A stretch of DNA of 64,000 bases. Source: Candidatus Stammera capleta (lineage in GTDB: Bacteria > Pseudomonadota > Gammaproteobacteria > Enterobacterales > Enterobacteriaceae). The position numbers and the translations under genes are program-made. Where the stretch lies: contig CP144843.1 of the NCBI GenBank assembly GCA_036689505.1, positions 167,107 through 231,106 of the forward strand, in the 5' to 3' direction. Shown piece after piece: positions 6,339 through 32,497 of the stretch; position 1 is the stretch's first letter, and each line of letters starts with the position of its first letter. Under the pieces are notes generated by a model. The model was not told the origin of the DNA and did no database searches. It was given only the letters and a program-made list of their open reading frames with translations.

Positions 6339-6695
6339 ATGATAAGAATTAAAAAAGGTAAAAATAATCATAAATATCATAAAAAAATATTAAAACTATG
6401 TAAAGGATATTATGGTGCAAGATCTAGATGTTTTAGAATAGCAAATCAAGCTTTTATAAAATCAGGTCAATATTCATATAGAGATAGAAAACAAAAAAAA
6501 AGATATTTTAGAAAAATATGAATTATGCAAATTAATGCTAAAGTTAGAGAATATGGTATGTCTTATAATTATTTTATTAATAAATTAAAAAAAAAATCAA
6601 TTTATATAAATAGAAAAATTTTATCAAATTTAATAAATAATAATTCTGAAATATTTGAAAAGTTAATGTTAACTATAAAAAATAATAAAATTTAA
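6339..6695 (+). CDS. rplT: 50S ribosomal protein L20
   Basis: [40 protein letters not shown] matches L20. The track ORF stops at TGA 6519-6521. Read-through continues to TAA at 6693-6695. An AAGGA Shine-Dalgarno-like motif lies just upstream at about 6326-6330. Confidence 0.9.
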
Positions 6696-7670
6696 ATGTT
6701 AAATTTAATTAAAAAAATTAAAAAAAAATTAAAAAAAATTATATATATAAAAAAAATCAAAAAAATAACTAAAATGTATAAAAAACTTTTAGGTAAAAAA
6801 GGGTATTTTAATAATATTATGAAATTATTTCATAATATACCTAATAAAAAAAAACCTAAAATAGGAAATATAATAAATATATTAAAAAAAAAAACAATAA
6901 AATTAATTAATAAACAAAAATTATATATAAATAAAAAAAAAAAAAAAAATAAAAAATTTATAGATATATCATTACCAGGAAATATAAATATATTATATGG
7001 AAATTTACATCCTATAACTATTACAATAAATTGAATAGAAAATTTTTTTAATGAATTAGGATTTAAAACAATTAATAATTCTGAAATAGAAAATATATAT
7101 TATAATTTTGATTCATTAAATATTAATAAAAATCATCCTTCAAGATCCAATAAAGATACATTTTGAATTAATAAAAAAAAATTATTAATTACTCAAACTT
7201 CATGTATACAAATAAAATATATGAAAAAAAATAAACCACCAATAAAAGTTATATCTATAGGAAATGTTTTTAGAAAAGATTATGATAAAACTCATACACC
7301 TATGTTTCATCAAATAGAAATATTTATAGTTGATTATAATATAAATTTTTGTAATTTAATATATATAATAAAAAATTTTTTAAATATTTTTTTTAATAAA
7401 AAAATAAAACTAAAAATAGTTACATCTTATTTTCCTTTTACAGAACCTTCTGCAGAAATATATATAAAAAATCATAAAAATAAATGAATTGAAATAATAG
7501 GATGTGGTTTAATACATCCTAAAATTTTAAAAAATTCTAATATTAATAATAATATTTTTTCAGGACTAGCATTTGGAATTGGTATAGAAAGATTAACAAT
7601 GATAAAATACAAAATATGTAATATAAAAAAATTATATGAAAATAATATAGAATGATTAAATCAATTTTAA
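6696..7670 (+). CDS. pheS: Phenylalanine--tRNA ligase alpha subunit
   Basis: Track ORFs 6696..7034 and 7221..7487 are in the same frame and joined by TGA codons. [53 protein letters not shown] and [12 protein letters not shown] are colinear with E. coli PheS. An in-frame A17 tract lies at 6933-6949. The stop is TAA at 7668-7670. Confidence 0.92.
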
Positions 7671-7674
7671 AAAT

Positions 7675-9967
7675 ATGAAATTCTATTTACAATGAATTAA
7701 AAAATATATAAATAATAAAAAAATAAATATTAAATATATAAAAAAAATTTTAAATAATAATGGATTTGAAACTAAAATTAAATATATTCCTCAAAATTTT
7801 ATAAAAACAAAAATATTAAAATATAAGATTTTAAAAAATAATATATATTTAATAAATATAAAATTAAATAATATTAAAATAAATTTAAAAGTAAAATATA
7901 ATAAAAATATTAATTATAAATATATATGAATAAATAATAATATATATAAAAACAAATGATATAAAAAAAATATTTTTAATATAAAATTACAAAATATAAA
8001 TAATAAATATTATTATATAATTAAAAAATATATATTTTTAAAAAGAAAACATGAAAAATTTTTAGAAATTAATATTCCATATAATAGAATTGATTGTAAT
8101 AATATATTTAATATTTCTAAAGAAATATGTATTTTAACTAAAAATAAAATTAAAAAAAATAAAATTAAAATAAAATTTAAAAATAAATATAAATATAAAT
8201 TAAAAATAAAATTATTAAATAAATGTTTTAAATATATAAAAAATTATAAATATTCAATTATAAATAATATTAAATTTAAAAAAAATAATATACCTGATTT
8301 TATTAAAAATAAAATCGAAAATATGGGATTTATAATTAATAATAATATATTAGATGTAATAAATTTTATATCAATTGAATTTGGACATATATTAATATGT
8401 TTAAATTTTAATAAAATAAAAAATTCTAAATTATATATAGATATTAAAAAACAAAAAAATAATATAAATAAAAATATAATTTTAAAAAATAAAAAAGAAA
8501 TTATTATAAAAAATTTTAATAATTATAATAAAAAATATCTACCTAATAAAAATACAAAAAAAATTATAATTATATCAATACTATTTAATAAAAATTTTAT
8601 ATATAAAAATTATAACAAAAATAATTATAATTTATTATTAACATATAATAATAATTATAATAAAGAAATACAATATTATTGTATTAAAAAATTATTACTT
8701 ATAATAAAAAATATTTGAAATGGAAATATAATATTATTTAAAAATATTAAAAATAATAAATTAAATAAAAAAAATTATAAAATAATTAAAATAAATTATT
8801 TAGAAATAAAAAAAAAAATTGGAATAAATATAAAAAAAAAAATAATCTTAAATATATTAAAAAAAATTAATTGTAAAGTAAAAATAAAAAATAATAATAT
8901 ATTTATAAAACCTCATAAAACAAGATATGATTTAAATATTAAAGAAGATTATATAGAAGAAATAATTAAATTTTACGGATTAAATAATATTAAACAAAAA
9001 AAAATTAAAAATATATTAAAAATTAAAAAAAATGATCAATATTCAAAAAATGTAAATAATATTAAAAAAATGTTATCTAATATTGGATATACTGAAGTAA
9101 TAAACTTTCATTTTAGTAATAAAAATAAAGAAAAAATATTTTTTAATAATATTAAAAATATTAAAATAACAAATCCTATATCTATAAAAATGTCAATATT
9201 AAGATCATCATTATTACCAGGATTAATTAATAATATTATTTATAATATAAAAAGAAAAAATAATAATATTAAATTATTTGAAATAGGTACTTGTTATAAA
9301 ATTAAAAATAATAAATTCATATTAAAAAAAAAAATATCTTTAATATTATATGGATTAAAATATAAAAAAAATTGAAAAAATAAAAAAAATAAATTATTTA
9401 ATTTTTATGATATAAAAGGAGATATAGAATTTTTATTAAAAAAACAAAATAAAATAAAAAATTTTTATCTTAAAAAAAGTAAATATAAATTTTTAGATAA
9501 AATACAAAACGCTGACATATTTATAAAAAAAAAAAAAAATAGGATTTATAGGTATGATCAATAATAAATTACAAAAAAAATTTTTAATAAAACATCCAAT
9601 ATTTATTACTGAAATAAATTTAAAAAAAATACTATTTCCATCAATATTTAAAATTAAAAAAATATCAAAATTTCCATATAATAAAAGAGATATTACTTTA
9701 ATAATAGATAAAAATATACCATTAAATTTTATAATTAATAAATGTAAAAATATAAATTATATAAAAAATATTGAAATAATTAATTTTTTTTTAAATAAAA
9801 AACTAAATAAAATAGATAAAAAAAATATAACATTAAGTTTAACTATACAAAGTAATAAAAAAACTTTAAAAGAAAATGAAATTAATAATACAGTAATAAA
9901 ATGTAAAAAAATATTAAAAAAAAAATTTAATGCTTTAATAGACAAAGAAATTAAATATATTAATTAA
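7675..9967 (+). CDS. pheT: Phenylalanine--tRNA ligase beta subunit, with the reading frame broken by one extra A in an A15 tract (9525-9539)
   Basis: MKFYLQWIKKYIN matches E. coli MKFSELWLREWVN. LEINIPYNRIDC and RYDLNIKEDYIEEIIKFYGLNNI are conserved. From 7675 to 9537 the gene is in frame 1, consistent with track ORFs 8323.. and 9070... The C-terminal part (IGFIGMINNKL...FPYNKRDITLII...) is in frame 2, matching track ORF 9554..9967. Confidence 0.88.
9525..9539 (+). other. A15 homopolymer at the pheT frameshift site (candidate slippage site)
   Basis: Frame 1 reads ATA AAA AAA AAA AAA AAT AGG ... and reaches TAA at 9562-9564. With 14 A it reads ...ADIFIKKKKIGFIG..., the same length as E. coli AAIYLKGERIGFVG. 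Confidence 0.85.
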
Positions 9968-10034
9968 TTAATAAAAATTAAATAAATTTATAAATATATT
10001 AAAATTTAAAGCAAATATTAATAAAAATAAAATT

Positions 10035-10757
10035 ATGAATATAATTATTAAAAAATATAATATCAAAACAAAAGATAAAAAAAATATACCTATTATTATT
10101 TATAATAATAAAAAAAAAAATATAAAAAATAAAAATGTTATATTAGTAATATCAGAAATATTTGGATTAAATAATAATATAAAATATATATGTAAAAAAT
10201 TAAGCAAAAATAATTATATTAGTATATTTCCACAATTATTTTATAGAATTAAAAATATAAAATATGATGAAAATATTAATATATTAAGAAACAAAATAAA
10301 CAAATTATCAGATAAAATAATATTATCTGATTTAGATTATTTAATATCTTGAAGTAAAAAAAAATTTAATACAAATAATATATTAATGATAGGATTAAGT
10401 TGAGGAGGAAGAATTACATGATTATATTCTTACTATAATAAAAAAAAAATTAAAAAATCAATTGTTTTATATGGAAGAATAAATGATATTAAAAACAAAA
10501 AACATCCTATACATCCAATAGATTTTGTAAACAAAATTAAAATACCAGTATTAGGTATATATGCAAAAAATGATGAAATTATAAATAAAAAAGATATATA
10601 TAATTTTAAAAATATTATAAAAAATAAAAAAATTAAATTAATTATATATAAAAATTGTAAACATGGATTTTTAGATAAAGAAAGAAAAACTTATAATAAA
10701 AATATATCTAAGAAAACTTGAAAAAATATATTAAATTGATTTAATAAAATTAAATAA
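10035..10757 (+). CDS. ysgA: Dienelactone-hydrolase-family protein (YsgA orthologue), 240 aa
   Basis: VILVISEIFGLNNNIKYICKKL and MIGLSWGGRITWLYSYYN match E. coli YsgA VVIVVQEIFGVHEHIRDICRRL and ITGFCWGGRITWLYAAHN. IPVLGIYAKND and CKHGF are also conserved. The track ORF ends at TGA 10350-10352. A 136-codon read-through continues to TAA at 10755-10757. Confidence 0.85.
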
Positions 10758-10779
10758 TATAATTAATTGGAATAAAATA

Positions 10780-11526
10780 ATGAAAAAAAATTACTATAAC
10801 AATAATTATTTCGAAAAAAATAATAATAATAATGTATTAATTACTTATATGAGTAATGTATATGCATGAATGTCATTTGGTTTATTATTAACTGCATTAA
10901 CTGCATGATATACTATTAAAACACCTTTAATGTTAGAATTAATATTTTTAAATAAATTTTTTATTTTTATTTTATTAATTTTACAATTAATGATTGTATT
11001 AATATTATCTAATTCAATAAATAAATTAACAGCAAAAATAGCAATTTTATTATTTATAATATATTCTATATTAACAGGAATATCTATATCAAGTATATTT
11101 TTAGTATATACATATTCATCAATATGTACTTGTTTTTTTATAACTAGTATAATGTTTGCTATAATGAGTATATGAGGTCATACAACTAAAAAAGATCTTA
11201 CTAAAATAGGTAATTTATCTTTAATGTGTTTAATAGGTATATTATTATCAAGTATAGTAAATATATGATTAAAAAATTCATATATTATTTGAGCTACATC
11301 ATATATAAGTATAATAATTTTTACTATATTAACAGCATGAGATACTCAAAAATTAAAAGAAATAGGAAATAATATAATTATAAATCATAATGATCAATTA
11401 AAAAAATATTCTATATTAGGAGCTTTAATATTATATTTAGACTTTATAAATATATATATCCTAATATTAAAAATATTAGGAATAAAGTTAAATAAAAATA
11501 AAGAAAATAAAGAAGAAAAAAATTAA
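10780..11526 (+). CDS. ybhL: Bax-inhibitor-1 / YbhL-family inner-membrane protein, 248 aa
   Basis: YMSNVYAWMSFGLLLTALTAWY, LYSILTGISISSIF, TAWDTQKLK and KYSILGALILYLDFINIY match E. coli YbhL YMAQVYGWMTVGLLLTAFVAWY, LYSALTGLTLSSIF, TAYDTQKLK and KYSILGALTLYLDFINLF. There are 50 codons from ATG 10780 to the track ORF at 10930, in the same frame. Confidence 0.85.
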
Positions 11527-11531
11527 TATAA

Positions 11532-11582
11532 ACCTTCTTATATTATATAATATTATTAAATATTAAATAATATAAAGAAGGT
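11532..11582. terminator. GC-containing hairpin between convergent ybhL and ppa (candidate bidirectional intrinsic terminator)
   Basis: ACCTTCTT (11532-11539) pairs perfectly with AAGAAGGT (11575-11582). The stem is extended by ATATT/AATAT after a 1-nt bulge. A/T runs flank it on both sides. It is one of very few G/C-bearing palindromes in any spacer here. Confidence 0.5.
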
Positions 11583-11595
11583 AAATTTAAATATA

Positions 11596-12135
11596 TTAAA
11601 CTTTTTTTTTATTTTTAAAATTTATAAATGATTTTTTAATTATCTTTTTTGATTCATTAATATCATATCAATTATCAATTTCGACTCATTTATTTTTATT
11701 TAAAAATTTATAATTACTAAAAAAAAAATGTATTTTTCTTAAAATCAATTTAGATATATCAAAAATATCATGAATATCATTAAATTCACTAGTAATAGTA
11801 TAATTAGGAACAGCTATAATTTTATCATCTTTACCAGATTCATCAATCATTTTTAATAAACCTATAGGACGACTATGTATAATAACACCTGTCATAATAC
11901 TATAATTACATATTAATACAACATCTAAAGGATCTCCATCTTCAGATAAAGTTTTATTTATATAACCATAATTAAAAGGATAAAAAATCGGAGTATTTAT
12001 AAATCTATCTACTAAAATATTATTATATTTATTATTAATTTCATATTTAATAAAAGAACTTCCATAAGGAATTTCAATTATAGTAAAAATATCATTAGGT
12101 ATATCTAAACCACACGGTACTTTATTAAAATTCAT
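11596..12135 (-). CDS. ppa: Inorganic pyrophosphatase, 179 aa
   Basis: MNFNKVPCGLDIPNDIFTIIEIP...YEI...VDRF...FYPFNYGYINKTLSEDGDPLDVVL...PIGLLKMIDESGKDDKIIAVP is colinear with E. coli Ppa. I start at the second Met (12135), which aligns with E. coli MSLLNVPAG. The TGA at 11686-11688 matches the conserved KGKW. The stop is TAA at 11596-11598. Confidence 0.9.
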
Positions 12136-12235
12136 ATATATCCTTACTATTATAATTAACAATTTATTGATTTTTAAAATACATATAATATAATTATATA
12201 TTATATATTTAAATAAAATTTTAAAATAATATAAT

Positions 12236-13591
12236 ATGAATATAAACCTAAAAATTAAAAATATAAAAAAATATTATAAAAAAAATATTATTAAAACTTT
12301 TAAATTTATAAAATCATATATAAAATCAAAAATACAGATTAATGTAAAAACATTAATTGGAAAAGATATAAAAATAAAAAATCAAAAAATTGAAAATATA
12401 GAATTTAAAAATAATCAATCTATATATATTAAAATATATAAAAATAATAAGAAATGTACATTTATATGTAATAATTTTAAAAAAAAGACTTTATTAAAAT
12501 TTATAAAATATGTAAATAATACTATATATTTTACATCAAAAGATAAATATAATAAATTACCATCTAATAAATTATTTAATAAAAAATATAATAAAAATTT
12601 AGGATTAATATTTAATGATAATATTAATACAAACAATATAATAAATTTATGTAAAAATATTGAATTAAATTCAATAAATTTTAATAAAAATATTGTAAGT
12701 GACGGTGTTATATTTCAAAAATATACTTACTATAATTTTATATATAATAATTCAAACTTAATAAAATATTATATATCAAAAAATTATATAATTATAAATA
12801 ATATTTTTTATAAAAAATCTAATATTATGATTTATAATACTAAATATATATATAGACATAAATTATCAGATTTAATTTATTATTCTCATAAATTACCAAA
12901 AAAAACATGTATAGAATTAATTAATAAAATTAATCCAAAAAAAATTAAAACTCAAAAATCATCAATAATTTTTACAAAAGAAATAAGTTCTAAAATATTT
13001 AATTATTTATATAAATCTATAAAAGGATCTAACATATATAATAAAACATCATTTATGATTAATAAATTAAATAAAAAAATATTACCTAAATGATTAAATA
13101 TTATAGAAAATCCTCATTTATATAAAGGAATAGGATCAAAACCATTTGATAATGAAGGATTAAATACTAAAAAATATACAATTATCAAAAATGGTGTATT
13201 AAAAACATGAATTTTAAATACAAAATGATCTAAAAAATTAAAAATAAAAAATACATTTAATTCAGGAGGTATACATAATTGATGTTTCATAAAAAATAAA
13301 TTTAATAATATAACATTCAAAAATTTAATTAAAATTATGAATAATGGAATTATTATAAATAATATTTTAGGACAAGGAATAAATATTAATAACGGTATGT
13401 TTTCTAAAGGAGCTTCAGGATTTTTAATAAAAAATAAAAAAATTAAATACCCTATACATGAAATTACTATATCAGGAAATTTAATAAAATTATTTAAAAA
13501 TATTAAATATATTAGTAATGAAATAAATGAAAATTCTAAAATTAGAATTGGTTCAATATTAGTGTCAAATATACAAATAGCAGGTATATAA
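12236..13591 (+). CDS. pmbA: Metalloprotease PmbA (TldE)
   Basis: Track ORFs 12236..13093 and 13337..13591 are in the same frame and joined through three TGA codons. The C-terminus [38 protein letters not shown]...[12 protein letters not shown] matches E. coli PmbA [38 protein letters not shown]...GSVLLPEMKIAG. Confidence 0.88.
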
Positions 13592-13650
13592 AAATAATAT
13601 TTTATAAATAAAAATATATTAAGATAAAAAAATTTTATTAATATAAAAAT

Positions 13651-14739
13651 TTATATATTTAATATATTTTTACATTTTAAAATATCAAAAATTTTTGAAA
13701 GATATTTAATAATATTTATTTGACCTTTATTAATTCAAACTCTAGGATCATAAAATTTCTTATTAGGATTGTAATTACCATTTGGATTACCTAATTGAGA
13801 ATGTAAATAATATTTATTATCTCTATAATATTTTAATATACCAAACCAATAATTTCATTGAATATCAGTATCTAAATTAATTTTTACTACTCCATATTTT
13901 ATTGATTCTAAAATAATTTTATAATCTGTACCTGATCCTCCATGAAATACAAAATTTAAAGGATTAATTTCTTTTATAGAATTAAAATCTTTAACTAATT
14001 TTTGAGCATTTAATAATATTTTAGGACATAAAACTATATTACCTGGTTTATATACACCATGAGTATTACCAAAAGAAGCTGCTATTAAAAAATTATTACT
14101 AATTTTAATTAATTTATTATATGTAAATAAAATATCTTTAGGATTAGTATATAATTTACTAGTAGAAATATTACTATTATCTATACCGTCTTCTTCACCA
14201 CCAGTACAACCAAGTTCAATTTCTAATAATATATTAAATTTAGAAAATTTATTTAAATAATAACATGAAATATCTAAATTTTTTTTTAAACTATAATTAG
14301 ATAAATCAATCATATGAGATGTAAATAAAGATTTACCGAATGAACTATAATAATCTTTATTATATTCTAATAATCCATCTATTCAATTAAGATTTTCCTT
14401 TAAACAATGATCAGTATGTAAAATAACAGGAACTTTATAAAATAGTGAAGCTTCATGTATATATTTAGCTGCTAATATAGATCCAAAAATTGAAGATTTA
14501 AGTTTTGAAAATTCATTAAAATTACTATTTATAAAAAAACATGAACCAGAATATGAAAATTGTATTATAACAATAGTTTTATATATTCTAGCAGATTCTA
14601 AAATAGAATTAATAGTATTTGTATCTACACAATTTATAGCTATTAAAGCTATATTATATTTTTTAATTAAATAAAATATTTTATTTAAATTATTTCCTGA
14701 TATTACACCAGGTTTAATAAAGTTTAAAAAATTTTTCAT
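13651..14739 (-). CDS. fbaA: Fructose-bisphosphate aldolase, class II
   Basis: FIKPGVISG, VPVILHTDHC, LEIELGCTGGEEDG, AASFGNTHGVYKPGN, FVFHGGSG and YDPRVW are colinear with E. coli FbaA. Two track ORFs and a C-terminal extension share one frame with TGA at conserved Trp. All in-frame triplets were checked down to TAA at 13651-13653. Confidence 0.93.
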
Positions 14740-14771
14740 AATAATTATCTTTAAATTAGTATATTAATTAT

Positions 14772-15932
14772 TTAAATATCTAATATGGGCAAAGTTTTAT
14801 TTTCTATAAATTTTAAAAAAGCACCACCACCAGTAGAAATATAAGATATTTTATCTTTTATATTAAATAATTCTATTGCAGCAATAGTATCTCCTCCACC
14901 AGCAACAATAAAAGCATTACTTTTTATTATAGCATCAGAAATTTTTTTAGTACCCTTTCTAAAATTAGGAAATTCAAATACACCTACAGGACCATTTCAT
15001 AAAATAGTTTTAGCTTTTAATATTATTTTACAAAAATAATCTATAGTTAAATCACCTAAATCCATTATTTCTTCATCATAAGATATATCTTTTAATTTTT
15101 TATTATAAGATTCAGATAATTCTGAAAATTCTTTTCCTACTCTACAATCTAAAGGAAATAAAATATTATTATATTTATTCTTTAATTTTTTAGCTAAATT
15201 AATAAATTTAGGTTCATATAAAGATTTACCAACATTATAATTAATAGATATAAAAGTATTACAAATACCACCACCAACAATTAAATAATCAGAAACTTTA
15301 GCTAAAGAATTTAAAACATTAAATTTAGTTGATATTTTAGAACCACCTACTATAGATATCATAGGTCTTTTAGGTTTATTTATTATCTTATATAAAGACT
15401 TTATTTCTTTATTAAACAATAATCCTAAACATGATATTTTACAATATTTACAAATTCCATAAGTAGATGAATGCTTACGATGAGATGTTGCAAAAGCATC
15501 CATAACAAATATATCACATAAACTAGAATAATATTTAGATAATAAATTACAATTATTACATTCACCTTTATTAAATCTTACATTTTCTAACATAATAATT
15601 CTTTCATTTATATTATTTAAATTTAACTTATCATAATTATTAAAATAATTTTTAATAAATTTAATATGTAAATTTAAATTTTTTTCTAATTCTTTACATA
15701 TAGGTAATAAAGAATAATTACTATCATATATTCCTTCTTTAGGTCTACCTAAATGAGATGTTAAAATTAATTTTTTAGCACCTTTTTTAATTAAAAATCT
15801 TATAGTAGGAATACTAGATATAATTCTAGCTTTAGATATAATAATACCATTCTTTATAGGTACATTTAAATCTAATCTCACTAATATTATCTTATTTAAT
15901 AAATCTAATTTTTTTATATTTTTTAATAACAT
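14772..15932 (-). CDS. pgk: Phosphoglycerate kinase
   Basis: [41 protein letters not shown] and KTIL-W(TGA 14997-14999)[16 protein letters not shown]...[10 protein letters not shown] match E. coli Pgk. The stop is TAA at 14772-14774. The pgk-fbaA arrangement matches E. coli. Confidence 0.93.
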
Positions 15933-16003
15933 AAAACCTCCATAAATATATAAATAATATTATAAAACATTTTAAATATTATAAATAAATAATTATATAA
16001 TAT

Positions 16004-16513
16004 TTATATATTAAATATATTAATTAATATATTAGATGTTCAAATTTTTATAATTTTATTATTTAACTTATAACTATTATTATCATCTATTACTAAACCT
16101 AAAAAATATTTTTTAAATAATAAAGATTTTGAATTTTTAAATTTATATATATTATTTAAATATCCAATAATAATATTATTATTATTAAATATATTATATA
16201 AATAATATAAACCATCACAAAAAGTATAACTATAGTTTAATGAATCTCCACAACCAAATAAACATATAATTTTATTATTTAAAATAATATTTTTATTATT
16301 TTTTAAAAAATTATATCAATTATATTGTAATTTTCCATAATATCATGTAGAAGTTCCTAATATTAAAATATCAAAATTATTAAATTTATTTATATTAACT
16401 TTAGATATATTAAATACAGTACAATCAATATACTTATTAATATTTTCATATATTAAATAAGAAATTTTTTTAGTATTACCAGTACTACTACCAAAAAATA
16501 TACCAACTTTCAT
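16004..16513 (-). CDS. fldA: Flavodoxin (long-chain, FldA type), 169 aa
   Basis: No track ORF exists because the gene has several TGA codons. Read with code 4 it gives MKVGIFFGSSTGNTKKISYLI...FDILILGTSTWYYGKLQYNW...ICLFGCGDSLNYSYTFCD..., matching E. coli FldA GIFFGSDTGNTENIAKMI...[20 protein letters not shown]...VALFGCGDQEDYAEYFCD. All in-frame triplets were checked and there is no TAA/TAG from 16513 down to TAA at 16004-16006. Confidence 0.88.
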
Positions 16514-16631
16514 AAATTAATCTAATTATTAAATAAATAATTAATTATACAATATATAAAAATTTTTATAAATATAAAATATTTAATTAAATTAAATTTA
16601 AATAATATATTATAAATAAATTAATTACATA

Positions 16632-16657
16632 ATATATATATATATATATATATATAT
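16632..16657. repeat. (AT)13 dinucleotide microsatellite abutting and overlapping the rnz stop codon
   Basis: A perfect alternating AT run is read directly from the sequence. Its last T is the first base of the TTA (TAA on the minus strand) stop triplet at 16657-16659. Confidence 0.9.
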
Positions 16658-18711: not shown

Positions 18712-20316
18712 ATGATTAATAAAAATTTTATATATAGAATTATTAATAAAGACATAAAAAATAAAAAATATAAAAATATAATAACAAGATTTGCTCCAGA
18801 ACCAAATGGTTTTTTACATATTGGTCATATTAAATCTATATATCTTAATTATAATATAGCAAAATATTATAAAGGTAAATTTTTTTTAAGATTTGATGAT
18901 ACTAATCCTAATACAGAAAAAAATATATATATTAAACAAATAAAAAAAAATATTAAATGATTAGGATTAAAATGAAATGAAAAAACAAAATATGCATCAA
19001 ATTATTTTAATTTATATTATAAATATGCAAAAAAATTAATAAATAAAGGACTAGCATATATAGATGAACAATCTAAAGAACAAATTAAAATTAATAAAGG
19101 ATCATTTAATAAATATGGTATAAATAGCCCATATAGAAATAGAAACATAAAGGAAAATTTGATTTTATTTAAAAATATGAAAGAGGGTTTATATAAAGAA
19201 GGAAGTATATGTTTAAGAGCAAAAATAAATATGAAATCTAATAATTTATTATTAAGAGATCCAATTTTATATAGAATAAAATATAAAAAACATCCAAAAA
19301 CAAAAAATAAATGATGTATATATCCTACATATGATTTTGCTCATTGTATAGCAGATTCGATAGAAAAAATATCTCATTCAATCTGTACTCTTGAATTTCA
19401 AAATAATAGATTTTTATATAAATGAATAATTAAAAATATAGGAGTTAAACATATACCTAAACAATATGAATTTTCTAAATTAAATATTACTTATAATTTA
19501 ACTTCTAAAAGAAAAATAAAATTTTTAATAAAAAAAAATATTATTAATAAATGAAGTGATCCTAGATTACTAACAATTTCTGGACTTAAAAATAGAGGAT
19601 ATCAACCTAAAATAATTTTAAATTTTTGTAAAAAATTAGGTGTAAGTAAACAAGAAAATATTATAGATATATCAATATTAGAAGAATGTTTAAGAAAATA
19701 TTTAAACAAAAAGTCAGAAAGAAGAATGTCTATACTTAATCCAATTAAAATAAATTTAATAAATTTAAATAAAACAAAAAAAATTAATATATTTAAAAAT
19801 CCTATATGCCCTGAATTAGGAAAAAGAAAAATATATCTTAATAAAATTATTTTTATAGATAAAAATGATCTTAAAAAAATAATAAAAAAAAAAATAAAAA
19901 ATAATAAAAAAATATATATAAAATTAAGATATGCAGGAATAATAAAATTTATAAAAACAATAAATTATAAAGATAATAACAAATGTATAAAATGTAAATA
20001 TTATAAATATAATAAAAATTTTAATAAAAATAAAAATATTAAAATTATACACTGAATATCTAAAAAAAAATCTATAAAATCTAAATTTAGATTATTTAAT
20101 AATTTATTTAAAAGTAATAATCCTAATAAAACTAAAAATATATTAAATATAATAAATAAAAATTCTATATTAATTAAAAAAGGATATATAGAAAAAAATA
20201 TTTCAAATATTGATAATAAAATATTTCAATTTGAAAGAGAAGGATATTTTAAATTAAATAAAAAATTTAAAGAAAATAAAATAATATTTGATAGAATAAT
20301 TAAATTAAAAAAATAA
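18712..20316 (+). CDS. glnS: Glutamine--tRNA ligase, 534 aa
   Basis: [74 protein letters not shown] and FQFEREGYF are colinear with E. coli GlnRS. The track ORFs at 18712 and 19726 share a frame. An 88-codon read-through from TGA 20053 ends at TAA 20314-20316. Confidence 0.92.
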
Positions 20317-20421
20317 ATAAAATTAAAATATATATATAAAATATATATATATAAATATAATAAAATAAAAAATAAAAATTAAATTTTAAAATATTAAATA
20401 AAATTAAAATTTTATGAAATT

Positions 20422-21183
20422 ATGATAAATAAATTAAAAAATAAAATAATAAAAAATTTTAGTAATATTAATGAAAATATAAATATATCTATATATAATA
20501 TATATTATATAAATTCAAAAAATACATATAAATATTATATAAATTATATAAATAATATATATAATAATAAAAATTTAATTAAATTAATAAAAAAAATATC
20601 AAAAAAAACTAATTCAAAAATATTACATACATATAAATTAAATTATAAATTAAAATTAAATAAAAAAAAAAAAACAATAAATATTACTAAAAATATATTA
20701 TTATCATATTTATATAATAATAATAATATATGTATATATACATATATAGAAAATTATTCTAAAAATAAAATATATACAATTAGAACTGATATAAATATAT
20801 ATTCTTGTGGATTAATATCACCATTAAATTATATTAATAATATTATATTATTTTTTAAATCTGATTTAATAAATATAAACTATATAATAAATGGTTTTAC
20901 AAAAGATATAAATGGAAAAAAATATTTTATAAATAATAAAATTAGTTCTGTAAAAAATTTTATTAAAAAAAAAATAATAAAAAATTATGATTTTTTAGAA
21001 ATAAATATATATCAAGAAAACTTATTTAATATTAAAATGATAATTAAAAATATTAATATTAAAAATTATATATTTAAAAATTTAATAAAAAAAAAATATA
21101 TATTAAGTAAAAAAAAAAAAAACAAAATTATTAAATCTATTTTTAAAGAAATGTATGAAATATATTATTCTAAAAATACTTAA
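20422..21183 (+). CDS. Hypothetical protein, 253 aa, Lys/Asn/Ile-rich, no family recognised
   Basis: The frame is uninterrupted, with no TGA codon. It is far longer than chance allows in this base composition. The coding strand is A-biased like its neighbours. I could not match it by eye to any conserved motif: no P-loop, PP-loop, NPPY or signal peptide. Confidence 0.6.
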   Translation: MINKLKNKIIKNFSNINENINISIYNIYYINSKNTYKYYINYINNIYNNKNLIKLIKKISKKTNSKILHTYKLNYKLKLNKKKKTINITKNILLSYLYNNNNICIYTYIENYSKNKIYTIRTDINIYSCGLISPLNYINNIILFFKSDLININYIINGFTKDINGKKYFINNKISSVKNFIKKKIIKNYDFLEINIYQENLFNIKMIIKNINIKNYIFKNLIKKKYILSKKKKNKIIKSIFKEMYEIYYSKNT

Positions 21184-21195
21184 AAATAAATTAAA

Positions 21196-21942
21196 TTATT
21201 TTAATATTTTATAACCTTTTTTAGTAACTAAAATAGTATATTCATATTGAGCTGATAAAGATTTATCAATAGTTTTTACTGTTCAACCATCTTTCATTAA
21301 TTTTGTTTTACAACTTCCTATATTAATCATTGGTTCTATTGTAAAAATCATATATTTTTTAAATAAAAAATTATAATTATTTTTATAATGTAATATAATA
21401 GGATCTTCATGTAATTTTTTGCCTATACCATGACCACAATATTCTTTAACAACAGAATAACCAAATTTTTCAACATAATTTTGTATTGAATTACCTATTA
21501 AACTTATTTTATTACCAGGTCTTATGTGCTTTAAAGATTTAAATATACTTTTTTTTGTAATTTTACATAAATTAATTGATTCTTTACTTACATTACCTAC
21601 TAAATACATTTTAGATGCATCAGAATAATAATTATTTTTACATATACTAATATCAATATTAATTATATCTCCATTTTTTAAAAATTCATTATATTTTGGT
21701 ATACCATGACATACTACATCATTAATTGAAGTACAAATTGATTTTGGGTAGTTCATATAACCTAATGATGCTGGATATGCTTTATAATGATTTACTATTC
21801 TATCATAACAAATATTATCTATTTCTCCAGTTGATATACCTGGTTTAATAAAATTATTTATATAACTTAAAATTTCATGAACTATTTTAGAAACTAAAAT
21901 AATATTTTTTATATCTTTTGAATTATTTATTCTTATATACAT
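21196..21942 (-). CDS. map: Methionine aminopeptidase type I, 248 aa
   Basis: SICTSINDVVCHGIP, GDIINIDI, YCGHGIGKKLHEDP, FTIEPMIN and KDG-W(TGA 21283-21285)-TVKT...SAQYEYTILVTKKG match E. coli Map. It is divergent from rpsB, as in E. coli. The stop is TAA at 21196-21198. Confidence 0.92.
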
Positions 21943-22027
21943 ATATTTTAATAAATATAATTTAAAATAATATTATATTATAATATATAATATAATATAC
22001 ATTTATTTAAATAATTAAAATTATAAT

Positions 22028-22712
22028 ATGATAAATTTATCAATTAAAAAAATGATTAAAGCAGGAATACATTTTGGGCATCAAACTAAATTTTGAAATC
22101 CAAAAATGAAACCTTTTATATATACAAAATATAATAAAATACATATAATCAATTTAGTTAAAACTGTTAAATTATTCAAAAAAGCATTATATGAAATTAA
22201 AAAAATATTTATTAATAAAGATAAAATTTTATTTATAGGTACTAAAAAAAATACATCTGAATTAATAAAAAAAACAGCAAAAAAATGTAAACAATTTTAT
22301 ATAAATAATAGATGATTAGGAGGAACTTTAACAAATTGAAAAACCGTAAAAAAATCTATTAAATTATTTAAAGATTTAAAAGAAAAATTTAAAAATAAAT
22401 TTTTTAATAATTTAACTAAAAAAGAATATTTAAATAAAAAAAAAAAAATTTAAAAAATTATATAATAATTTAAATGGTATTAAAGATATGGGAGGTATAC
22501 CTAACGCAATATTTGTTATTGATGCAAAATACGAAAATTTAGCTATAAAAGAAGCTAAACAATTAAAAATAAAAATATTTTCTATAGTAGACACTAATAC
22601 AAATCCAGATAATATAGATTATATTATTCCAGGTAATGATGATTCCAAAAGAGCTATAAAATGATATTTAAATAAAATAAATAAATTATATAATATATAT
22701 ATAAAAAAATAG
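22028..22712 (+). CDS. rpsB: 30S ribosomal protein S2, with the reading frame broken by one extra A in an A13 tract (22436-22448)
   Basis: The N-terminal part is in frame 2: [32 protein letters not shown]...RWLGGTLTNWKTV...[12 protein letters not shown], then ATT TAA. The C-terminal part is in frame 0: [39 protein letters not shown]...[15 protein letters not shown], ending at TAG 22710-22712. Both halves are colinear with E. coli RpsB. The frames are fixed by track ORF 22106..22315 and by the tsf start at 22719. Confidence 0.9.
22436..22448 (+). other. A13 homopolymer at the rpsB frameshift site (candidate slippage site)
   Basis: With 12 A the product reads ...[26 protein letters not shown]. 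That gives 16 residues between KKE and GIKDMGG, exactly as in E. coli ([26 protein letters not shown]). Confidence 0.85.
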
Positions 22713-22718
22713 ATTTAT

Positions 22719-23537
22719 ATGAATAAAAAATTAGAGATTATAAAAAAATTAAGAAAAATTACGCAAATAAGTATAATAAAATGTAAAAAAGTATTAGAAA
22801 ATAATAATTTTAATATATATAAATCCATAAAATATTTTAAAAATAAAAAAAATAAAAAAAAAAATAAATCATTTTATGAATTCATAATAACTAAAACTAA
22901 AAAAAATATATCATTAATAATAAAATTTGAATCAGAAACAGATTTTATTATAAATAATTTAGAATTTAAAAAATTTAAAAAAAAAATAATTAATAAAATT
23001 ATAGATAATAATAATTTAAAAAAAATTATAAATTCAAAAAATATAAATAAAATATTTAATAAAGATATAAATATAATTATAAATAAATTAAATGAAAATA
23101 TTAAAATAAAAAAAATTATATATTTAAAATCAAATAAAAAACAATATTTAAATAATTATAATCATAATAAAAAAATTGGAGTAATAGTATTAGTTGAAAA
23201 AATTGATAAAAATAAAAAAATTAAAAAAAATAAAATTAAAAAAATATCAATTCATATAGCTGCTATGCAACCAAAATATTTAGATATAAAATCAGTACCT
23301 AATAAATATATTAATAAAATAAAAGATAAAATAAATATTAAATTTAATAATATACAAAAAAAAAAATATATTTATAATTTAATAAATAAAAAAATTAAAC
23401 AAATATGTCTTAAAGAACAAATATTTTTATTTAATAATAAAATTAAAATTAAAAAATATTTAAAAAAAAATAATATTAAAATAATAAAATTTAAAATATT
23501 AAAATCTAAAATAAATAAAATTAATTATAAATTTTAA
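22719..23537 (+). CDS. tsf: Elongation factor Ts
   Basis: The 272-aa ORF is intact and sits directly after rpsB. IKKLRKITQISIIKCKKVL matches E. coli VKELRERTGAGMMDCKKAL. ESETDFIINN matches NCQTDFVAKD, and HIAAMQPKYL matches HVAASKPEFI. Confidence 0.88.
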   Translation: MNKKLEIIKKLRKITQISIIKCKKVLENNNFNIYKSIKYFKNKKNKKKNKSFYEFIITKTKKNISLIIKFESETDFIINNLEFKKFKKKIINKIIDNNNLKKIINSKNINKIFNKDINIIINKLNENIKIKKIIYLKSNKKQYLNNYNHNKKIGVIVLVEKIDKNKKIKKNKIKKISIHIAAMQPKYLDIKSVPNKYINKIKDKINIKFNNIQKKKYIYNLINKKIKQICLKEQIFLFNNKIKIKKYLKKNNIKIIKFKILKSKINKINYKF

Positions 23538-23582
23538 ATAAATAAATATTTATTATATAATATTATATATAAATATATAAAA

Positions 23583-23669
23583 GGAGGTATGGCTGAGTGG
23601 TTTAAGGCAACGGTCTTGAAAATCGTAAACGATAAATATCGTTCGAGAGTTCGAATCTCTCTACCTCCG
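23583..23669 (+). tRNA. tRNA-Ser (anticodon UGA), long variable arm, no encoded CCA
   Basis: The acceptor stem is GGAGGTA/TACCTCC with discriminator G. The anticodon stem ACGGT/ATCGT carries loop CT-TGA-AA. The variable arm stem is ACGAT/ATCGT. The T arm is GAGAG-TTCGAAT-CTCTC. Confidence 0.9.
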
Positions 23670-23691
23670 TAAAATAATAAAATATATTGTT

Positions 23692-24444
23692 ATGAAAAAT
23701 TTAGAATTAGAAATATTATTAAATAAATATTTAAAAAGTTACAATGTAATAGATAATTCATTAAATGGAATACAAATAGGTGGAAATAAAGAAATTAATG
23801 GAATAATTACTAGTGTAAGTTTAACACCTAAAATAATAAAAAAATCTATATTATTTAAATATAACACTATTATAGTTCATCATGGAATATTATGAAAAAA
23901 TAATTTTATATTATCAAATTATAATAAAATAATGATTTATAATATATTAAAACATAATATTAATTTATTTGCTTGACATTTACCATTAGATATACATAAA
24001 AAAATAGGTAATAATGTTATACTATCAAAAAAATTAAATTTAAAAAATATTATATTACCTAGTAATAATAATCCTTTTATAATATGTAAAAATTATAAAA
24101 AAAATAAAATAATTAATAAAATTAAAAAAATATTTAAAATATTTATTTTTTATAAAACTAAAAAAGAAATTAATAAAATATGTTTATGTTGTGGAAACGG
24201 AAATAATTTTATAGAAAAAAATATTTTAAAATATAATATTGATACATATATAACTGGTGAAATATCTGAAATAAATTTTAATATTATAAAAAAATATAAT
24301 ATAAATCTAATTATATTAGGACATGAAAAATCAGAAATATATGGAATAAAAAAATTAGGTAAAATTATAAATAAAAAATTTAATATTAAAATTTATAATT
24401 ATATAATAAAAAAAAAAATATTAGATTTTACAATAATGGATTAA
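23692..24444 (+). CDS. ybgI: Nif3/YbgI-family metal-binding protein (GTP cyclohydrolase 1 type 2 homologue), 250 aa
   Basis: MKNLELEILLNKYL, NGIQIGG, IIVHHGILW, NLFAWHLPLDIHKKIGNN, ITGEISE and GHEKSE match E. coli YbgI MKNTELEQLINEKL, NGLQVEG, VIVHHGYFW, NLYGWHLPLDAHPELGNN, ITGEVSE and GHHATE. A 184-codon read-through from TGA 23893 ends at TAA 24442-24444. Confidence 0.88.
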
Positions 24445-25831
24445 ATAATATAAAAAATTTTTCTAAAAATTTTTCATAAAATTTTTTATCTTTTATATAA
24501 TTTAAATTAATTAATTTTGAATAATTCATATATTTTTTTAATATAATAAATAATTTTTTATTTAAAAAAAAACTTTTTATTAATAATGCTATTTCATAAT
24601 TTAATCATATACTTCTAAAATCAAAATTTATAGTACCCAAAACACTTATATTATAATCTATTAAAATTAATTTAGTATGTAAAAAATTACCCTTAAATAA
24701 ATAAATTTTAACCCCAGATTTTATTAAATCATAAAAAAAAAATCTACTTGATCAATAAATTAAAAAAGTATCATTTTTTTCAGGTATAATTATACTTACA
24801 TTAATACCTTTACTGGATACAGTACAAATAGCATCAATTATACTATTACTAGGTATAAAATAAGGAGTAGTAATTATAATTCTATATTTAGAAGAAAAAA
24901 TTAAATTTAATAAAAATCTATGAATAATATTTCTAGGTAAACCAGGACCTGATGTAATAACTTGAACTAAATTATCTTTATAAAGATTATTTATATTATT
25001 AAAATCATAAAAATTAATTTTTTTTTTTAAAATATTTATACCAGTCTGTAATTCTCAATCATAAGAAAAAATTATATTAATAATATTACCTAATAATCTA
25101 CTTTTTATTCTAACCATTAAATCTATTCATATTCCTAATTTTATATTTTTATTAAAAAAACTATCATCTATTAAATTCATACCACCAGTATATATAATTT
25201 TATTATCTATTAATATTATTTTTTTATGTTGTCTTATGTCAAATCTTTTAAAAATTATATTATTTAAATTTAATTCTAAATATTTTACAATTTTAATACC
25301 TTTTTTAGACATTAATAAAGGTAAATCTGTTTTAAAAAAGTTAATACTTCCTATAGCATCTAAAATAATTTTACACTTTACACCTCTTTTAGAAGCTTTA
25401 ATTAATTCTAAAATTATTTTATTTGATAAATAACCAGGTTCTCAAATATAAAAAATTATATATATATTTTTTTTAGCTAATTTTATATCATTAATTATTA
25501 AATTAATTAACTTATTATTATTAGTAATTAATAATAATTTTTCAAAATATACAGGAGGTATACCTATATTATAATAAATAAAATTAAAAATATAATAATT
25601 GTTTATTTTATAAAATATAAATTTATTATTTATATTTAATTTAATTAAATTTTTATATCAAATATTATTAGATTTAATACAAATATTTTTTTTAATATAA
25701 AAATTATATAATATAATATATTTAACTATTAATATTAATATTAATAAAAATATTATAATAAATAATAATAATAAGATATATAATAAAAATTTGTAATTTA
25801 ATTTTGTAAATAATCTAAATAATAAAAACAT
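24428..25831 (-). CDS. clsA: Cardiolipin synthase (phospholipase-D/HKD family), about 467 aa
   Basis: The N-terminus is hydrophobic. FYIWEPG, ILDAIGS and a first HKD motif RQHKKIILIDNKIIYTGGMN are present. GI-W-IDLMVRI matches E. coli GQWIDLMARM. The second HKD motif is LHTKLILID. The C-terminus EKFFILFNPLL matches E. coli ERLFYFFSPLL. There are 173 codons from ATG 25831 to track ORF 25312, in the same frame. The stop TAA at 24428-24430 overlaps the ybgI 3' end by 17 nt. Confidence 0.88.
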
Positions 25832-25929
25832 AAAATATATAAAATTATATTTAATAATATTTTATATTATTATTAATTTCAAATATTTACAAAAAATAAT
25901 TTATAATTAATATAATAAAAATAAAATAT

Positions 25930-27651
25930 ATGAATAATAAAAAAATAAAAAAAAAAATAAAAATTTTAACAAAAAAAATTATTAAATATTCTGATTATTA
26001 TTTTAATAAAAATAAAAATTTAATTAAAGACGAAAAATATGATTTATATCTTAAAAAATTAATAAATTTAGAAAAAAAATATCCTATTTACAAAAAAAAA
26101 AACAGTCCTACAGAAATTATTAATTATAAATTAAATAAAAATATAAAAAAAGAAAAACATGATATACCTATGCTATCTATAAAAAGTGTATATACTTTTA
26201 AATATATAAAAAAATTTTTTAAAAAAATAAAAAAAAAATATAATAATAAAGAATTTTGTTGTGAACTTAAAATTGATGGAATAGCAATTAGTTTAATTTA
26301 TAAAAAAAATAAATTATATAAAGCAATTACTAGAGGAAATGGAAAATATGGTGAAAATATTACAGATAATATAAAAGTTATATCATCTATACCAAAAAAA
26401 ATATATAATAATTATAAAAATAAAATTGAAATTAGAGGAGAATTATTTATTAAAAAAAAAAATTTTAATAAAATAATTAAAACAGAAAAATTATTTTCAA
26501 ATTGTAGAAATCTTGTTTCAGGAACAATAAGATCATTAAATACAAATTTAATTAAAAAAAGAAATTTATCATTTATAGCATATGATTTAATAATAAACAA
26601 TAATAGAAAAAAAATTAAAGATAATATAAATTGTTTAAAAAAAATTGAAAAATTAGGTTTTAATATAGAAAAATATACTAAAAAATATAATTTAATTAAA
26701 AAAATTAAAAATTTTTATAATAAAATATATAAAAATAGAAAAAGAATAAAATTTGATATTGATGGAATAGTTATTAAATTAAATAATAGAAAATTACAAG
26801 AAAAAATAAAATATAATAATAATTATATTAAATGAGCAATTGCTATAAAATTTACTTCTAAAACTAAAAAAACAATTATTAAAAATATTAAATTTAAAAT
26901 TGGTAAAAGTGGTATTATAATACCTATTATTATTATAAAATCTATATACATAGGTGGAGTAAAAATAAAAAAAATCAATTTATATAATTTAAAATATTTA
27001 ATAAAATTAAATATTAATATAAATGATAAAATTTTAGTTGAAAGAAAAGGTGATGTAATTCCTAAAATTAAAAAAATTATTAAAAGATATAATAAAAAGA
27101 ATAATTCATATATAAATAAATGTCCATTTTGTAATATTAAAATTAATTTAAATTTAAATACCCCAAAATGTTTAAATATTAATTGTCCAAAACAATTATA
27201 TAAGAAAATAAATAATTTTGTTTCAAAAAATGGATTTAATATAAAATATTTAGGAGAAAAAACTATAAAGTTATTAATAAAAAATAAATTAATTAATAAA
27301 ATACATGATATATTTAAATTAACAATAAATTCTTTAATTAAAATTAAAAATTTTAAATATAAAAAATCTAAAAAAATAATTAAATCAATTAAATATTCAA
27401 TAAAAAAAATAAAATTAAATAATTTTATATATTCATTATCAATACCATATATAGGTATATTATCTTGTAATTATATATATAAAAAAATAAAATATATTAA
27501 AAATTTTATTAAACTTAAAAAAAATAATATTAAATATTTAAATAAATTAAATAAAATTCAAATTAAATCAATAAAATATTTTTTAAATAATAAAAAAAAT
27601 ATTAATTTAATAAAAAAATTAAAACTAATAATAAATAAAAAAATATTCTAA
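25930..27651 (+). CDS. ligA: NAD-dependent DNA ligase, 573 aa, ending after the HhH domain (no BRCT domain)
   Basis: CELKIDGIAISL contains the KxDG adenylation motif. TRGNGKYGENIT, EIRGELF, DIDGIVIK, W(TGA)AIAIKF, ERKGDVIPKI and the Cys4 zinc finger CPFCN...CLNINCP are present, followed by HhH-like repeats. The 573-codon count matches the coordinates. E. coli LigA is 671 aa. Confidence 0.9.
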
Positions 27652-29030
27652 ACTTTATAAAAATTTTTTAATCTTAATAATACTTGTTTTTTTTTTAAAA
27701 TAAATATCAATTTAAATATATCAATACCATATTTATTTCCAATTAAGATATAACGTAATAATGAATAAACACATTTTTTTTTAAAATTAAATTTACTAAA
27801 AAAATTATTAATTATATTTTTTATATTTTGTACACTTCATAATATTAATAAATCAAATTTTTTTATAAAATATTTTATAATAAAATTTAAATTTAAATTA
27901 AATTTTTCTAAAATATTTGAATTTAATTCAAAATAACTTGTTATTAATATATAAAAATCAACTATTTGATATAAATAATATATTCTTTCTAAAATTATAA
28001 AAAATATTTCATATAAATTTTTTATTTTATTCATATTAATATTATGATTTAAAAAAAATGGTTTTAAATAAAATTTTAATTTATCATAACTAATGTTATT
28101 AATATAATATTTATTCAGTGAAATAATTTTTTCATTATTTATAATACAAGGAGATTTATTTAAATTATTAAAATTAAATATATCTTTTAATTTATCAATA
28201 TTATTAATTTCTAAATTATTATTAGATATACCTAATTTTAATAAATAACTTATTAAAGTTTGAGGTAAATATCCTTTTTCAATATAATTGTTTATATTAT
28301 AATTATTATTTCTTTTAGAAAGTTTTTTTTTAAATTTATCTAATATTATAGGTAAATGAATATAATTTGGTATTTTAAATTTTAAACATTTTAATAAATT
28401 AATTTGTTTAGGAGTATTGTTAATATGTTCAGATCCTCTAATAACATTATTTATTAACATATTATTATCATCTATAATAACACAAAAATTATAAGTAGGT
28501 AATCCATTAGATCTTCTAATTACAAAATCATCTAATTCTTTATTTTTAATATTTAAGTTTCCAAAAACTAGATCATTAAATTTAACTTTACCTTTTAATA
28601 AATTTCTAAATCTTACAACATATTTAATATTTTTATAATTTAAATTTTTATTTCTACAATAACCATCATATTTTGGCTTTCTTTTATATAAAATACATTT
28701 TTTACGTATATTAATTAATCTTTCTTCATTACAATAACATTTATAAGCAAAATTATTTTTTAATAAAATATCTATATAATAATTATATAAATCTATATTT
28801 TTAGATTGAAAATATATATCATTATCTCAATATATACCAAATCAATCTAGTAAATATAAAATATTATCAATATATTTTTTATCACATCTTTTAAAATCTG
28901 TATCTTCTATTCTTAAATAAAATTTACCATTATTTTTTCTTGCAAATAATCAAGAATATAAAGCAATACGTATATTTCCTAAATGTAAATATCCTGTAGG
29001 ACTTGGTGCAAATCTTGTTATTATATTCAT
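27648..29030 (-). CDS. gltX: Glutamate--tRNA ligase, 460 aa
   Basis: [74 protein letters not shown] and [11 protein letters not shown] are colinear with E. coli GluRS. All in-frame triplets from 27648 to 29030 were checked. The stop TAG at 27648-27650 overlaps the ligA stop by 4 nt. Confidence 0.92.
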
Positions 29031-29106
29031 ATAATAATAATTTTAAAATTAAAATTAATTTATAATATATAATTGTATATATTAATTTATAATTTTCAAA
29101 TATTAA

Positions 29107-30894
29107 ATGACTAAATATATAAGAAATTTTTGTATTATAGCACATATAAATCATGGAAAATCAACATTCTCAGATAGAATAATAGAAATATGTAAAAAAA
29201 AAAAATTAAAAAAAAATCAACAAAGAATATTAGATAATATGGAATTAGAAAAAGAAAAAGGAATTACTATAAAAGCACAATGTGTAAATTTAAAATTTAA
29301 TTATAAAAATAATATTTTTAAATTAAATTTAATAGATACACCTGGTCATGTAGATTTTTCATATGAAGTATCAAAATCATTATATGTATGTGAAGGAGCC
29401 ATATTATTAATAGATATAAGAAAAGGTATACAATCACAAACATTAAATAACTATAATATAGCTAAAAGTTTAAAAATTAAAATATTAATTGTAATAAATA
29501 AAATAGATATTAAAAATATAAATATTAAAAAAATAAAAAAACAAATAAAAAAAAAATTAAATTATAATAATAAAATATTTATATGTTCTTCTAAAACTGG
29601 ATTTGGAATAAAAAAAATAATAAAAAATATCATTAAAATTATACCACATCCAAAATTAAATATTAATAAATCATTATTAGGTTTAATTATTGATTCATAT
29701 TTTAATAATTATTTAGGAACATTCTTTTTAATAAAAATAAAAAGTGGTTATATTAAATTAAATAATAATATTAAAATATCAAATATTAAAAAAAAATATA
29801 ATGTAGATAATATTATTATAAATACACCAAATAAAAAAAAAATTAATATTCTAAAATGTGGAGAAGTTGGTTGAATAACATGTAAAATTAAAAAAATAAA
29901 TAAAAATTTTATAGGTAATATTATATATAATAATAATAATAAAAAAATAGATAATAAAAAAATAATTAAAAAAATAAAACCACAAATATTTGCTAGTATA
30001 TTTCCAAAAGAAAATAATAATTTTAACAATTTAAAAATATCATTACAAAAACTACAATTAAATGACCCATCTTTAACATATGAAATAGAAAAATCTACAA
30101 TTTTAGGTTTTGGATTTAAATGTGGTTTTTTAGGAATATTACATATAGAAATAACAAAAGAAAGATTAAAAAGAGAATATAATATAGAAATATTAATAAT
30201 TAATCCTACAGTTATATTTATAATTAAAAATAAAAATAATAAAAAAATATATATTAAAGACACAGATGAAATTCAATTTATTAAAAATATTAAATATATA
30301 AAAGAACCTATAGTAATATGTAATATAAAATCTAATAAAAAATATTTAGGAAATATAATTAATATATGTAATACAAAAAGAGGAAAATTAAAAAATATAA
30401 AATATATAAATAAAAATAATGTTTCATTAAAATATAAAATTCCCCTTTTAGAAATTATAACTAATTTAAGTAATGAATTAAAATCTATAACACAAGGATA
30501 TTGTAATTATAAATATAAATTTTATAAATATAAAAAATCAAATATTACTTTATTAAAAGTAATTATAAATAATAAAATAATTTATGGATTATCTAAATTT
30601 ATACATAAAAATAATATTAAAAAAGAAAGTATTAGAATAATTAATATTTTAAAAAAATATATTAATAAACAATTATTTAATATAACTATACAAATATCAT
30701 GTAACAACAAAATTATTTGTAGAACAAATATAAAAGCTTTAAGAAAAAATGTAATTTCAAAATGTTATGGAGGAGATATAACTAGAAAAAAAAAATTAAT
30801 AAATAAACAAAAAAAAGGAAAAAAAAAAATGGAAAAAATAGGTAATGTTCTTATAAATCCTAAAATTTTTTCTAAAATATTAAAATTAAATTAA
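29107..30894 (+). CDS. lepA: Elongation factor 4 (LepA), 595 aa
   Basis: IRNFCIIAHINHGKST, ELEKEKGITIKAQ, LIDTPGHVDF, VINKID, GFGFKCGFLGILHIEI and CYGGDITRKKKLINKQKKGKKKMEKIGNV match E. coli LepA. The 595-codon count from 29107 to TAA 30892-30894 is consistent. Confidence 0.92.
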
Positions 30895-30907
30895 AAATAA
30901 AACATAA

Positions 30908-31801: not shown

Positions 31802-31818
31802 ATTTTAAAATATAATAA

Positions 31819-32478: not shown

Positions 32479-32497
32479 TTAATTAAAATAAAAAAAT

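Follow-up and report, generated by a model that had tools for sequence, protein, structure and literature searches.

In the deposited genome of Candidatus Stammera capleta, the open reading frame of pheT, which encodes the PheRS beta subunit, is interrupted by one additional A in a long poly(A) tract. This raises the question of whether the locus carries a genuine lesion, so that the C-terminal domain is made separately or is being lost, or whether pheT is an intact gene and the additional base has another origin. The original prediction, which was made from the sequence alone, considered three outcomes: restoration of a full beta subunit by slippage, expression of the gene as two polypeptides, and loss of the C-terminal domain. 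The window analyzed here is the stretch of 64,000 nucleotides that contains the gene, and coordinates refer to this window unless another sequence is named.

Reading of the window

The window has a G+C content of 13.7%. Under the standard bacterial code, rplT, pheS and pheT are broken at TGA codons, but the three genes are continuous when TGA is read as Trp. One example is the TGA at positions 6522–6524 in rplT, which aligns with a conserved Trp of E. coli RplT. Stammera is an extracellular pectinolytic symbiont of tortoise beetles and has been annotated with code 4 (bioRxiv 10.1101/2023.12.12.571295). Since the organism uses code 4, an open reading frame track made with table 11 artificially fragments rplT, pheS, pheT and many other genes, and its breaks at TGA codons are not frameshifts. 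The features of the locus are shown in Table 1. In related genomes, orthologous 324-aa genes with PF02912/PF01409 are found upstream of pheT.

Table 1. Features of the pheT locus and of rpsB in the window.
Feature	Position	Strand	Description
thrS-infC-rpmI-rplT-pheS-pheT gene order			Window open reading frames match the gene lists of related loci
pheS	6696–7670	+	Alpha subunit of PheRS; code-4 open reading frame of 324 aa
pheS A17 Lys run	6933–6949	+	In frame; longest tract in the window; same in Logan contig L088
pheT, upstream frame	7675–9564	+	629 aa; B3_4, B5 and most of the B6/7 CLM domain
pheT poly(A) tract	9525–9539	+	Exactly A15: codons ATA AAA AAA AAA AAA, one extra A and the following ATA
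pheT, downstream (+1) frame	9527–9967	+	Last ~30 residues of B6/7 CLM and the FDX-ACB (B8) anticodon-binding domain
rpsB	22028–22712	+	Interrupted in the deposit by one extra A (+1) in the A13 tract at 22436–22448

A/T tracts of at least 12 nt occur 12 times in the window, and each is a sense-strand A run within a gene. The Lys codons of pheT (positions 7675–9967) are 176 AAA and 1 AAG, with AAA making up 23% of all pheT codons; thus the A tract in pheT is a by-product of composition.

The pheT locus as deposited

The pheT frame is open from the ATG at position 7675, directly after pheS, to a TAA at 9562–9564. The translated product, which is 100% identical to an NCBI protein (P0001), has the C-terminus ...ADIFIKKKKNRIYRYDQ, i.e. 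it reads ...NADIFIKKKK, followed by 8 out-of-frame residues, NRIYRYDQ, and then the stop codon. The last ~143 residues of PheT are encoded in the +1 frame, which is open over 146 codons at positions 9527–9967 and reads KKKKIGFIGMINNKL...FPYNKRDITLII. NCBI carries a separate 137-aa CDS that starts at the ATG at position 9554 (P0055). The A15 tract, the frame and its stop codon had all been described in the original prediction and are confirmed in the sequence; the same is true of the placement of the C-terminal residues in the other frame, with the IGFIG motif upstream of the ATG at 9554.

The original prediction also held that the extra A separates the C-terminal domain. The FDX-ACB domain is indeed found on the downstream piece (Pfam PF03147, E = 3e-19); the break, however, is not at a domain boundary. 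It is inside the B6/7 catalytic-like domain (PF17759), with profile positions 184–214 of 214 encoded downstream of the tract.

The position of the break bears on the proposal that the gene is expressed as two polypeptides, with a 629-aa N-terminal and a 137-aa C-terminal product reassembling into a working beta subunit. The ATG at 9554 is in frame and has an AGGA sequence 9 nt upstream, and the 137-aa CDS is annotated by NCBI. Yet the B6/7 CLM domain would be divided ~30 residues before its end, and a start at 9554 would leave out the IGxxG strand, which is almost invariant. Moreover, AGGA and ATG simply represent the codons for the conserved Gly and Met in IGFIGM and are also found in intact relatives, and no relative is split except one that has the same +1 change in the tract. 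Expression as two cooperating polypeptides is thus very improbable.

PheT after removal of one A

Deletion of one A gives a PheT of 763 aa with four Pfam domains in canonical order: B3_4, B5, B6/7 CLM and FDX-ACB (PF17759, E = 3e-47; PF03147, E = 1e-17; PF03484, E = 2e-14; PF03483, E = 1e-5, which is below the cutoff). The repaired junction, ADIFIKKKKIGFIG, aligns gap-free with AAIYLKGERIGFVG of an Escherichia PheT, in agreement with the statement that the A14 junction has the E. coli length. The A14 version shares with bacterial PheT the canonical domain order, the place directly 3′ of pheS and an end-to-end alignment with enterobacterial PheT. The deposited Stammera sequence differs from these in being interrupted inside B6/7. 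The N-terminal tRNA-binding domain (PF01588) gave no match in Stammera PheT; it is present in some other symbionts.

Orthologues in other Stammera genomes

The nearest PheT proteins come from ~35 genomes. A total of 33 full-length Stammera orthologues (735–782 aa) were recovered; every one is in frame and has FDX-ACB, and their alignment is continuous through the segment ..K(K/N)KKIG(F/Y)(I/L/M)G... Thirty-three of 35 Stammera orthologues are in frame at the tract, i.e. the closest relatives (P0002–P0004, 76–80% identity) and 30 further orthologues. At the homologous site, the reading frame is kept by A13 in CP043978.1 and CP144815.1 and by A10 in CP043973.1; in the window it takes A14, since the Ile codon before the tract is ATA.

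A second Stammera genome, CP144817.1, which was published in the same study, is also split at the homologous tract (positions 4804–4817 of L082, the locus taken from this genome). Its tract is A14, one A longer than the in-frame A13, and the result is a 613-aa product ending in KKKKNRLY and a separate 146-aa FDX-ACB open reading frame. The nearest relatives of CP144817.1 are in frame; thus the +1 events in the window strain and in CP144817.1 are independent. The repaired PheT of CP144817.1 has no exact match in Logan, and this second frameshift is seen in one assembly only.

At the same locus of CP144817.1, infC has not been called (L082 positions 872–1424). A frameshift in infC was considered and rejected, as the frame is open; it is also conserved and lacks an ATG start. 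This infC probably uses a non-canonical start codon, as E. coli infC does.

Amino acid identities were compared for the parts of PheT upstream and downstream of the tract. The window PheT and P0002 have an identity of 0.81 in the N-part and 0.77 in the C-part, and CP144817.1 and P0026 have 0.91 and 0.90, respectively. Pairs of intact proteins show 0.76–0.84 in the N-part and 0.71–0.81 in the C-part. The downstream part of pheT has neither excess divergence nor relaxed constraint in the two split genomes.

These comparisons concern the reading in which the frameshift marks the onset of pseudogenisation, with the C-terminal anticodon-binding domain on its way to being lost. Gene erosion in endosymbionts usually begins with homopolymer indels (PMC3017870). 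Stops, however, make up ~9% of codons over the six frames of the window, so that a downstream frame of 146 open codons at 13.7% GC has a probability of ~1e-6 of arising by chance. The FDX-ACB match (E = 3e-19) is likewise found on a segment free of excess divergence, and the domain has been kept in 33 of the 33 full-length Stammera orthologues recovered. The open downstream frame is as well conserved as in relatives with an intact gene. There is consequently very little probability that the domain is being lost.

An independent assembly of SRR23946987

The 90% cluster that contains the truncated PheT has a second member, a 763-aa protein (P0054) from the Logan assembly of the public run SRR23946987. 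It is identical to the A14-repaired PheT. The Logan contig SRR23946987_2735 (L088, 9,727 bp) aligns with window positions 6927–16654 with 0 mismatches and one gap, and this sole gap is at the pheT tract, which is A14 in Logan and A15 in the deposited sequence. Raw data showing 14 A in the tract had been named in the original prediction as evidence against the frameshift, and the Logan assembly provides such a length indirectly. The statement that pheT is out of frame thus holds for the deposited consensus but is not established for the organism, as the independent assembly has A14. The presence of the in-frame allele in the reads, as seen in the A14 assembly, also speaks against loss of the C-terminal domain.

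The split genes in the 64 kb are pheT and rpsB only, both at long A tracts. In the deposit, rpsB is truncated to a 141-aa CDS (P0056). The frame-repaired RpsB of 227 aa was found by exact look-up in Logan (P0057). Logan contig SRR23946987_871 (L089) aligns with window positions 20153–32712 with 0 mismatches and one gap; the sole difference in these 12,559 bp is A12 in Logan, with an intact RpsB, versus A13 in the deposit. The shift in pheT is therefore in the same +1 direction as that in rpsB, as had been stated.

The remaining 10 of the 12 tracts of at least 12 nt are identical between the deposit and Logan. At the DNA level, this agreement is found for pheS A17 (L088) and for g20398 A13 and A14, lepA A12 and rnc A13 (L089). 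At the protein level, the exact sequence of the window is present in both NCBI and Logan for era A12 and A13, ung A15, recC A13 and skp A13. Of these tracts, g20398 A14 is at positions 21109–21122 and ung A15 at 35939–35953. In two other strains NCBI and Logan concur at nine tracts, A12–A16. Thus, long homopolymers are normally called reproducibly. Assuming that the deposit is correct and that Logan errs at random, the probability of errors on exactly the two frame-breaking tracts is 1/66, with the frame-restoring direction not yet counted.

Logan sequences are k=31 unitigs with Minia3 simplification along SPAdes-like heuristics, which suggests that A14 is the better-covered path in the graph. 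In-frame alleles are present in the SRR23946987 reads, and abundant enough to win a de Bruijn-graph path.

The zero substitutions over 22 kb, together with the accession series, point to SRR23946987 as the DNA library behind the deposit. An RNA-seq origin of this run, in which case A14 could be a correction at the transcript level, was considered and judged unlikely. The new RNA-seq of the study was made from symbiont samples of C. alternans and from two further hosts, Chelobasis bicolor and Calyptocephala attenuata. Neighbouring run numbers are different Stammera strains, and the Logan contigs span 10–32 kb with genes on both strands; both of these points also argue against an RNA-seq origin.

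Some observations were made on the ends of the Logan contigs. Contig L088 begins 6 nt before the pheS A17 tract, which suggests a graph branch there. The window has two (AT)n microsatellites, of 26 and 30 nt, at positions 16632–16657 and 52511–52540. The 9.7-kb Logan contig stops inside the first (window position 16654), and the 32-kb Logan contig, judged by where it starts and how long it is, ends at ~52.5 kb and within the second. Contig ends at the (AT)n microsatellites reflect the k=31 repeat limit and not biology.

The same assembly has to be weighed against the explanation that A15 is fixed in the genome, with full-length PheT coming only from a minority of slipped mRNA (−1 or +2) or from ribosome sliding. 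The deposited, curated chromosome does have A15 and NCBI carries two CDSs, the downstream frame is intact and conserved, and CP144817.1 shows a +1 at the same tract. There is also precedent: frameshifts in poly(A) tracts of essential genes are described as tolerated via transcriptional slippage (PMC3017870, citing Tamas et al. 2008), and ribosomes are known to slide on iterated AAA codons (PMC4363877). Against a fixed A15, the independent assembly has A14 in pheT, and A12 in rpsB, and yet is concordant with the deposit at every other long tract; Logan would have to err at precisely the two tracts concerned. The frameshift of the window strain is not common to any relative. Furthermore, to correct a genomic +1 the transcription error has to be a −1, which is the rarer event. 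Most transcription errors in A/T runs are insertions; in Buchnera, homopolymeric tracts account for 151 of 157 insertions and 16 of 57 deletions, and no transcription error restoring a frame was seen in that study (PMC5574713). A fixed A15 is an unlikely explanation, and slippage as the means of restoring the full beta subunit, the remaining outcome of the original prediction, is needed only if A15 copies are real.

Origin of the length difference

What has been observed directly is A14 in the independent assembly, intact orthologues and conservation of the C-terminus; which allele predominates in the cells, and any slippage, are inferred. The pheT gene is very probably functional and full-length, and the A15 of the deposit a consensus miscall or a co-existing length variant, not a fixed lesion. 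The deposited split is most likely not a gene losing a domain, but a homopolymer of a familiar type that is unstable or was miscalled.

The proposed origin is as follows. Four AAA Lys codons flanked by ATA codons form a 14-nt poly(A) tract. In one sub-case, the extra A would be a consensus miscall that entered during assembly or curation at an error-prone homopolymer. In the other, there would be a true mixture of lengths, either as heteroplasmy within a host or as differences between pooled beetles, which the assemblers resolved differently. The two sub-cases are about equally likely. The full-length PheRS beta subunit would come from A14 templates. If A15 copies exist, A14 copies would complement them, and slippage of RNA polymerase or sliding of ribosomes along the A run would rescue them in part. 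Slippage rises exponentially with run length (PMC5574713), and from this dependence some truncated PheT is probably made even from the A14 allele.

Several points favour a true mixture rather than an artefact alone. At a bubble, both pipelines retain the path with better coverage, and a plain miscall at just two tracts is therefore hard to explain. The ten other tracts, which are as long or longer, are concordant; thus the discordance is site-specific and not general noise, and this leaves room for a mixed population. PCR stutter is usually biased to −1, i.e. it shortens tracts, whereas both deviations found here are +1. A mixture is also helped by the same +1 at the same site in CP144817.1, which could reflect genuine recurrent mutation, and by the normal agreement of both pipelines. 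The miscall, on the other hand, is helped by the nature of the two genes: pheT and rpsB both act in translation, are essential and occur in single copy, and the frameshift in each is a singleton. The deposited genomes were assembled with MEGAHIT from 2x150 Illumina reads of PCR-amplified libraries of 1–3 dissected beetles, and were manually curated.

A more specific form of the mixture can be put forward tentatively, at somewhat less than an even chance. Here the length alleles of pheT (A14/A15) and rpsB (A12/A13) would co-exist at high frequency in one host species, complemented and partly rescued by slippage, and the pheT tract would be a recurrent hot spot. If such co-existence is true, the pheT and rpsB variants would possibly form one linked haplotype, and the pheT tract would be mutating recurrently in the lineages of the window strain and CP144817.1. 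Such a hot spot would modulate essential-gene dosage in a symbiont that lives extracellularly.

Comparison with known systems

Poly(A) frameshifts in essential genes, e.g. dnaX, dnaG and pth, are known from Blochmannia and Buchnera, and ~30% full-length transcripts have been reported for frameshifts tolerated by slippage (PMC3017870, citing Tamas et al. 2008). The pheT locus resembles this type (Tamas et al. 2008; for Blochmannia vafer, Williams & Wernegreen 2010, PMC3017870) in having a single-base indel in a long sense-strand A run. The gene is otherwise intact, conserved and essential, the genome is AT-rich and reduced, and two genes are affected in 64 kb. The run exceeds the 9 nt by which the type is recognized, with the downstream frame intact. 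In contrast to the known cases, the frameshift in Stammera is not reproducible at the DNA level, since the independent assembly is in frame, and that of the window strain is not common to sister lineages. The Stammera tracts are also longer, A13–A15 as against the 9–12 nt typical of Blochmannia.

Miscalls or heterogeneity of homopolymers in short-read data offer a second comparison. As in these, the discordance is limited to two long homopolymers, with a singleton +1 at each and no nearby substitutions. The assemblies of the same strain disagree only at homopolymers, and the in-frame version matches all orthologues. The Stammera locus differs in that ten other long tracts in the window are called identically.

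Programmed frameshifting, of which prfB (+1) and dnaX (−1) are examples, is alike in that the frame changes at a slippery A-rich sequence. The Stammera frameshift is different, as it is not conserved and has neither regulatory logic nor a conserved stimulatory element; programmed frameshifting was rejected, the orthologues being in frame. As for a naturally split PheT, the break does not coincide with a domain boundary, and the conserved IGFIG precedes the ATG at 9554.

Significance

No description of a pheT or rpsB frameshift in Stammera was found in the literature searched, and the Stammera genome paper and its supplement do not mention pheT, rpsB or slippage. Events of this kind are well known as a biological phenomenon and also as a pitfall in assembly, and the present one may not be a real property of the organism. 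Neither the miscall nor the mixture implies a new mechanism.

The locus calls for caution in the annotation of symbiont genomes with 13–14% GC. In these, Lys runs become A tracts of 12–17 nt, and a length call that differs by one base can make an essential gene look like a pseudogene or a split gene. The deposited annotation shows pheT as two CDSs and a truncated rpsB, and this could bias counts of pseudogenes, the definition of core genomes and conclusions about domain loss. If both lengths do co-exist, Stammera, an extracellular gut symbiont, would join the lineages that tolerate poly(A) indels in essential genes, and pheT together with rpsB would offer two convenient loci at which to measure heteroplasmy and slippage.
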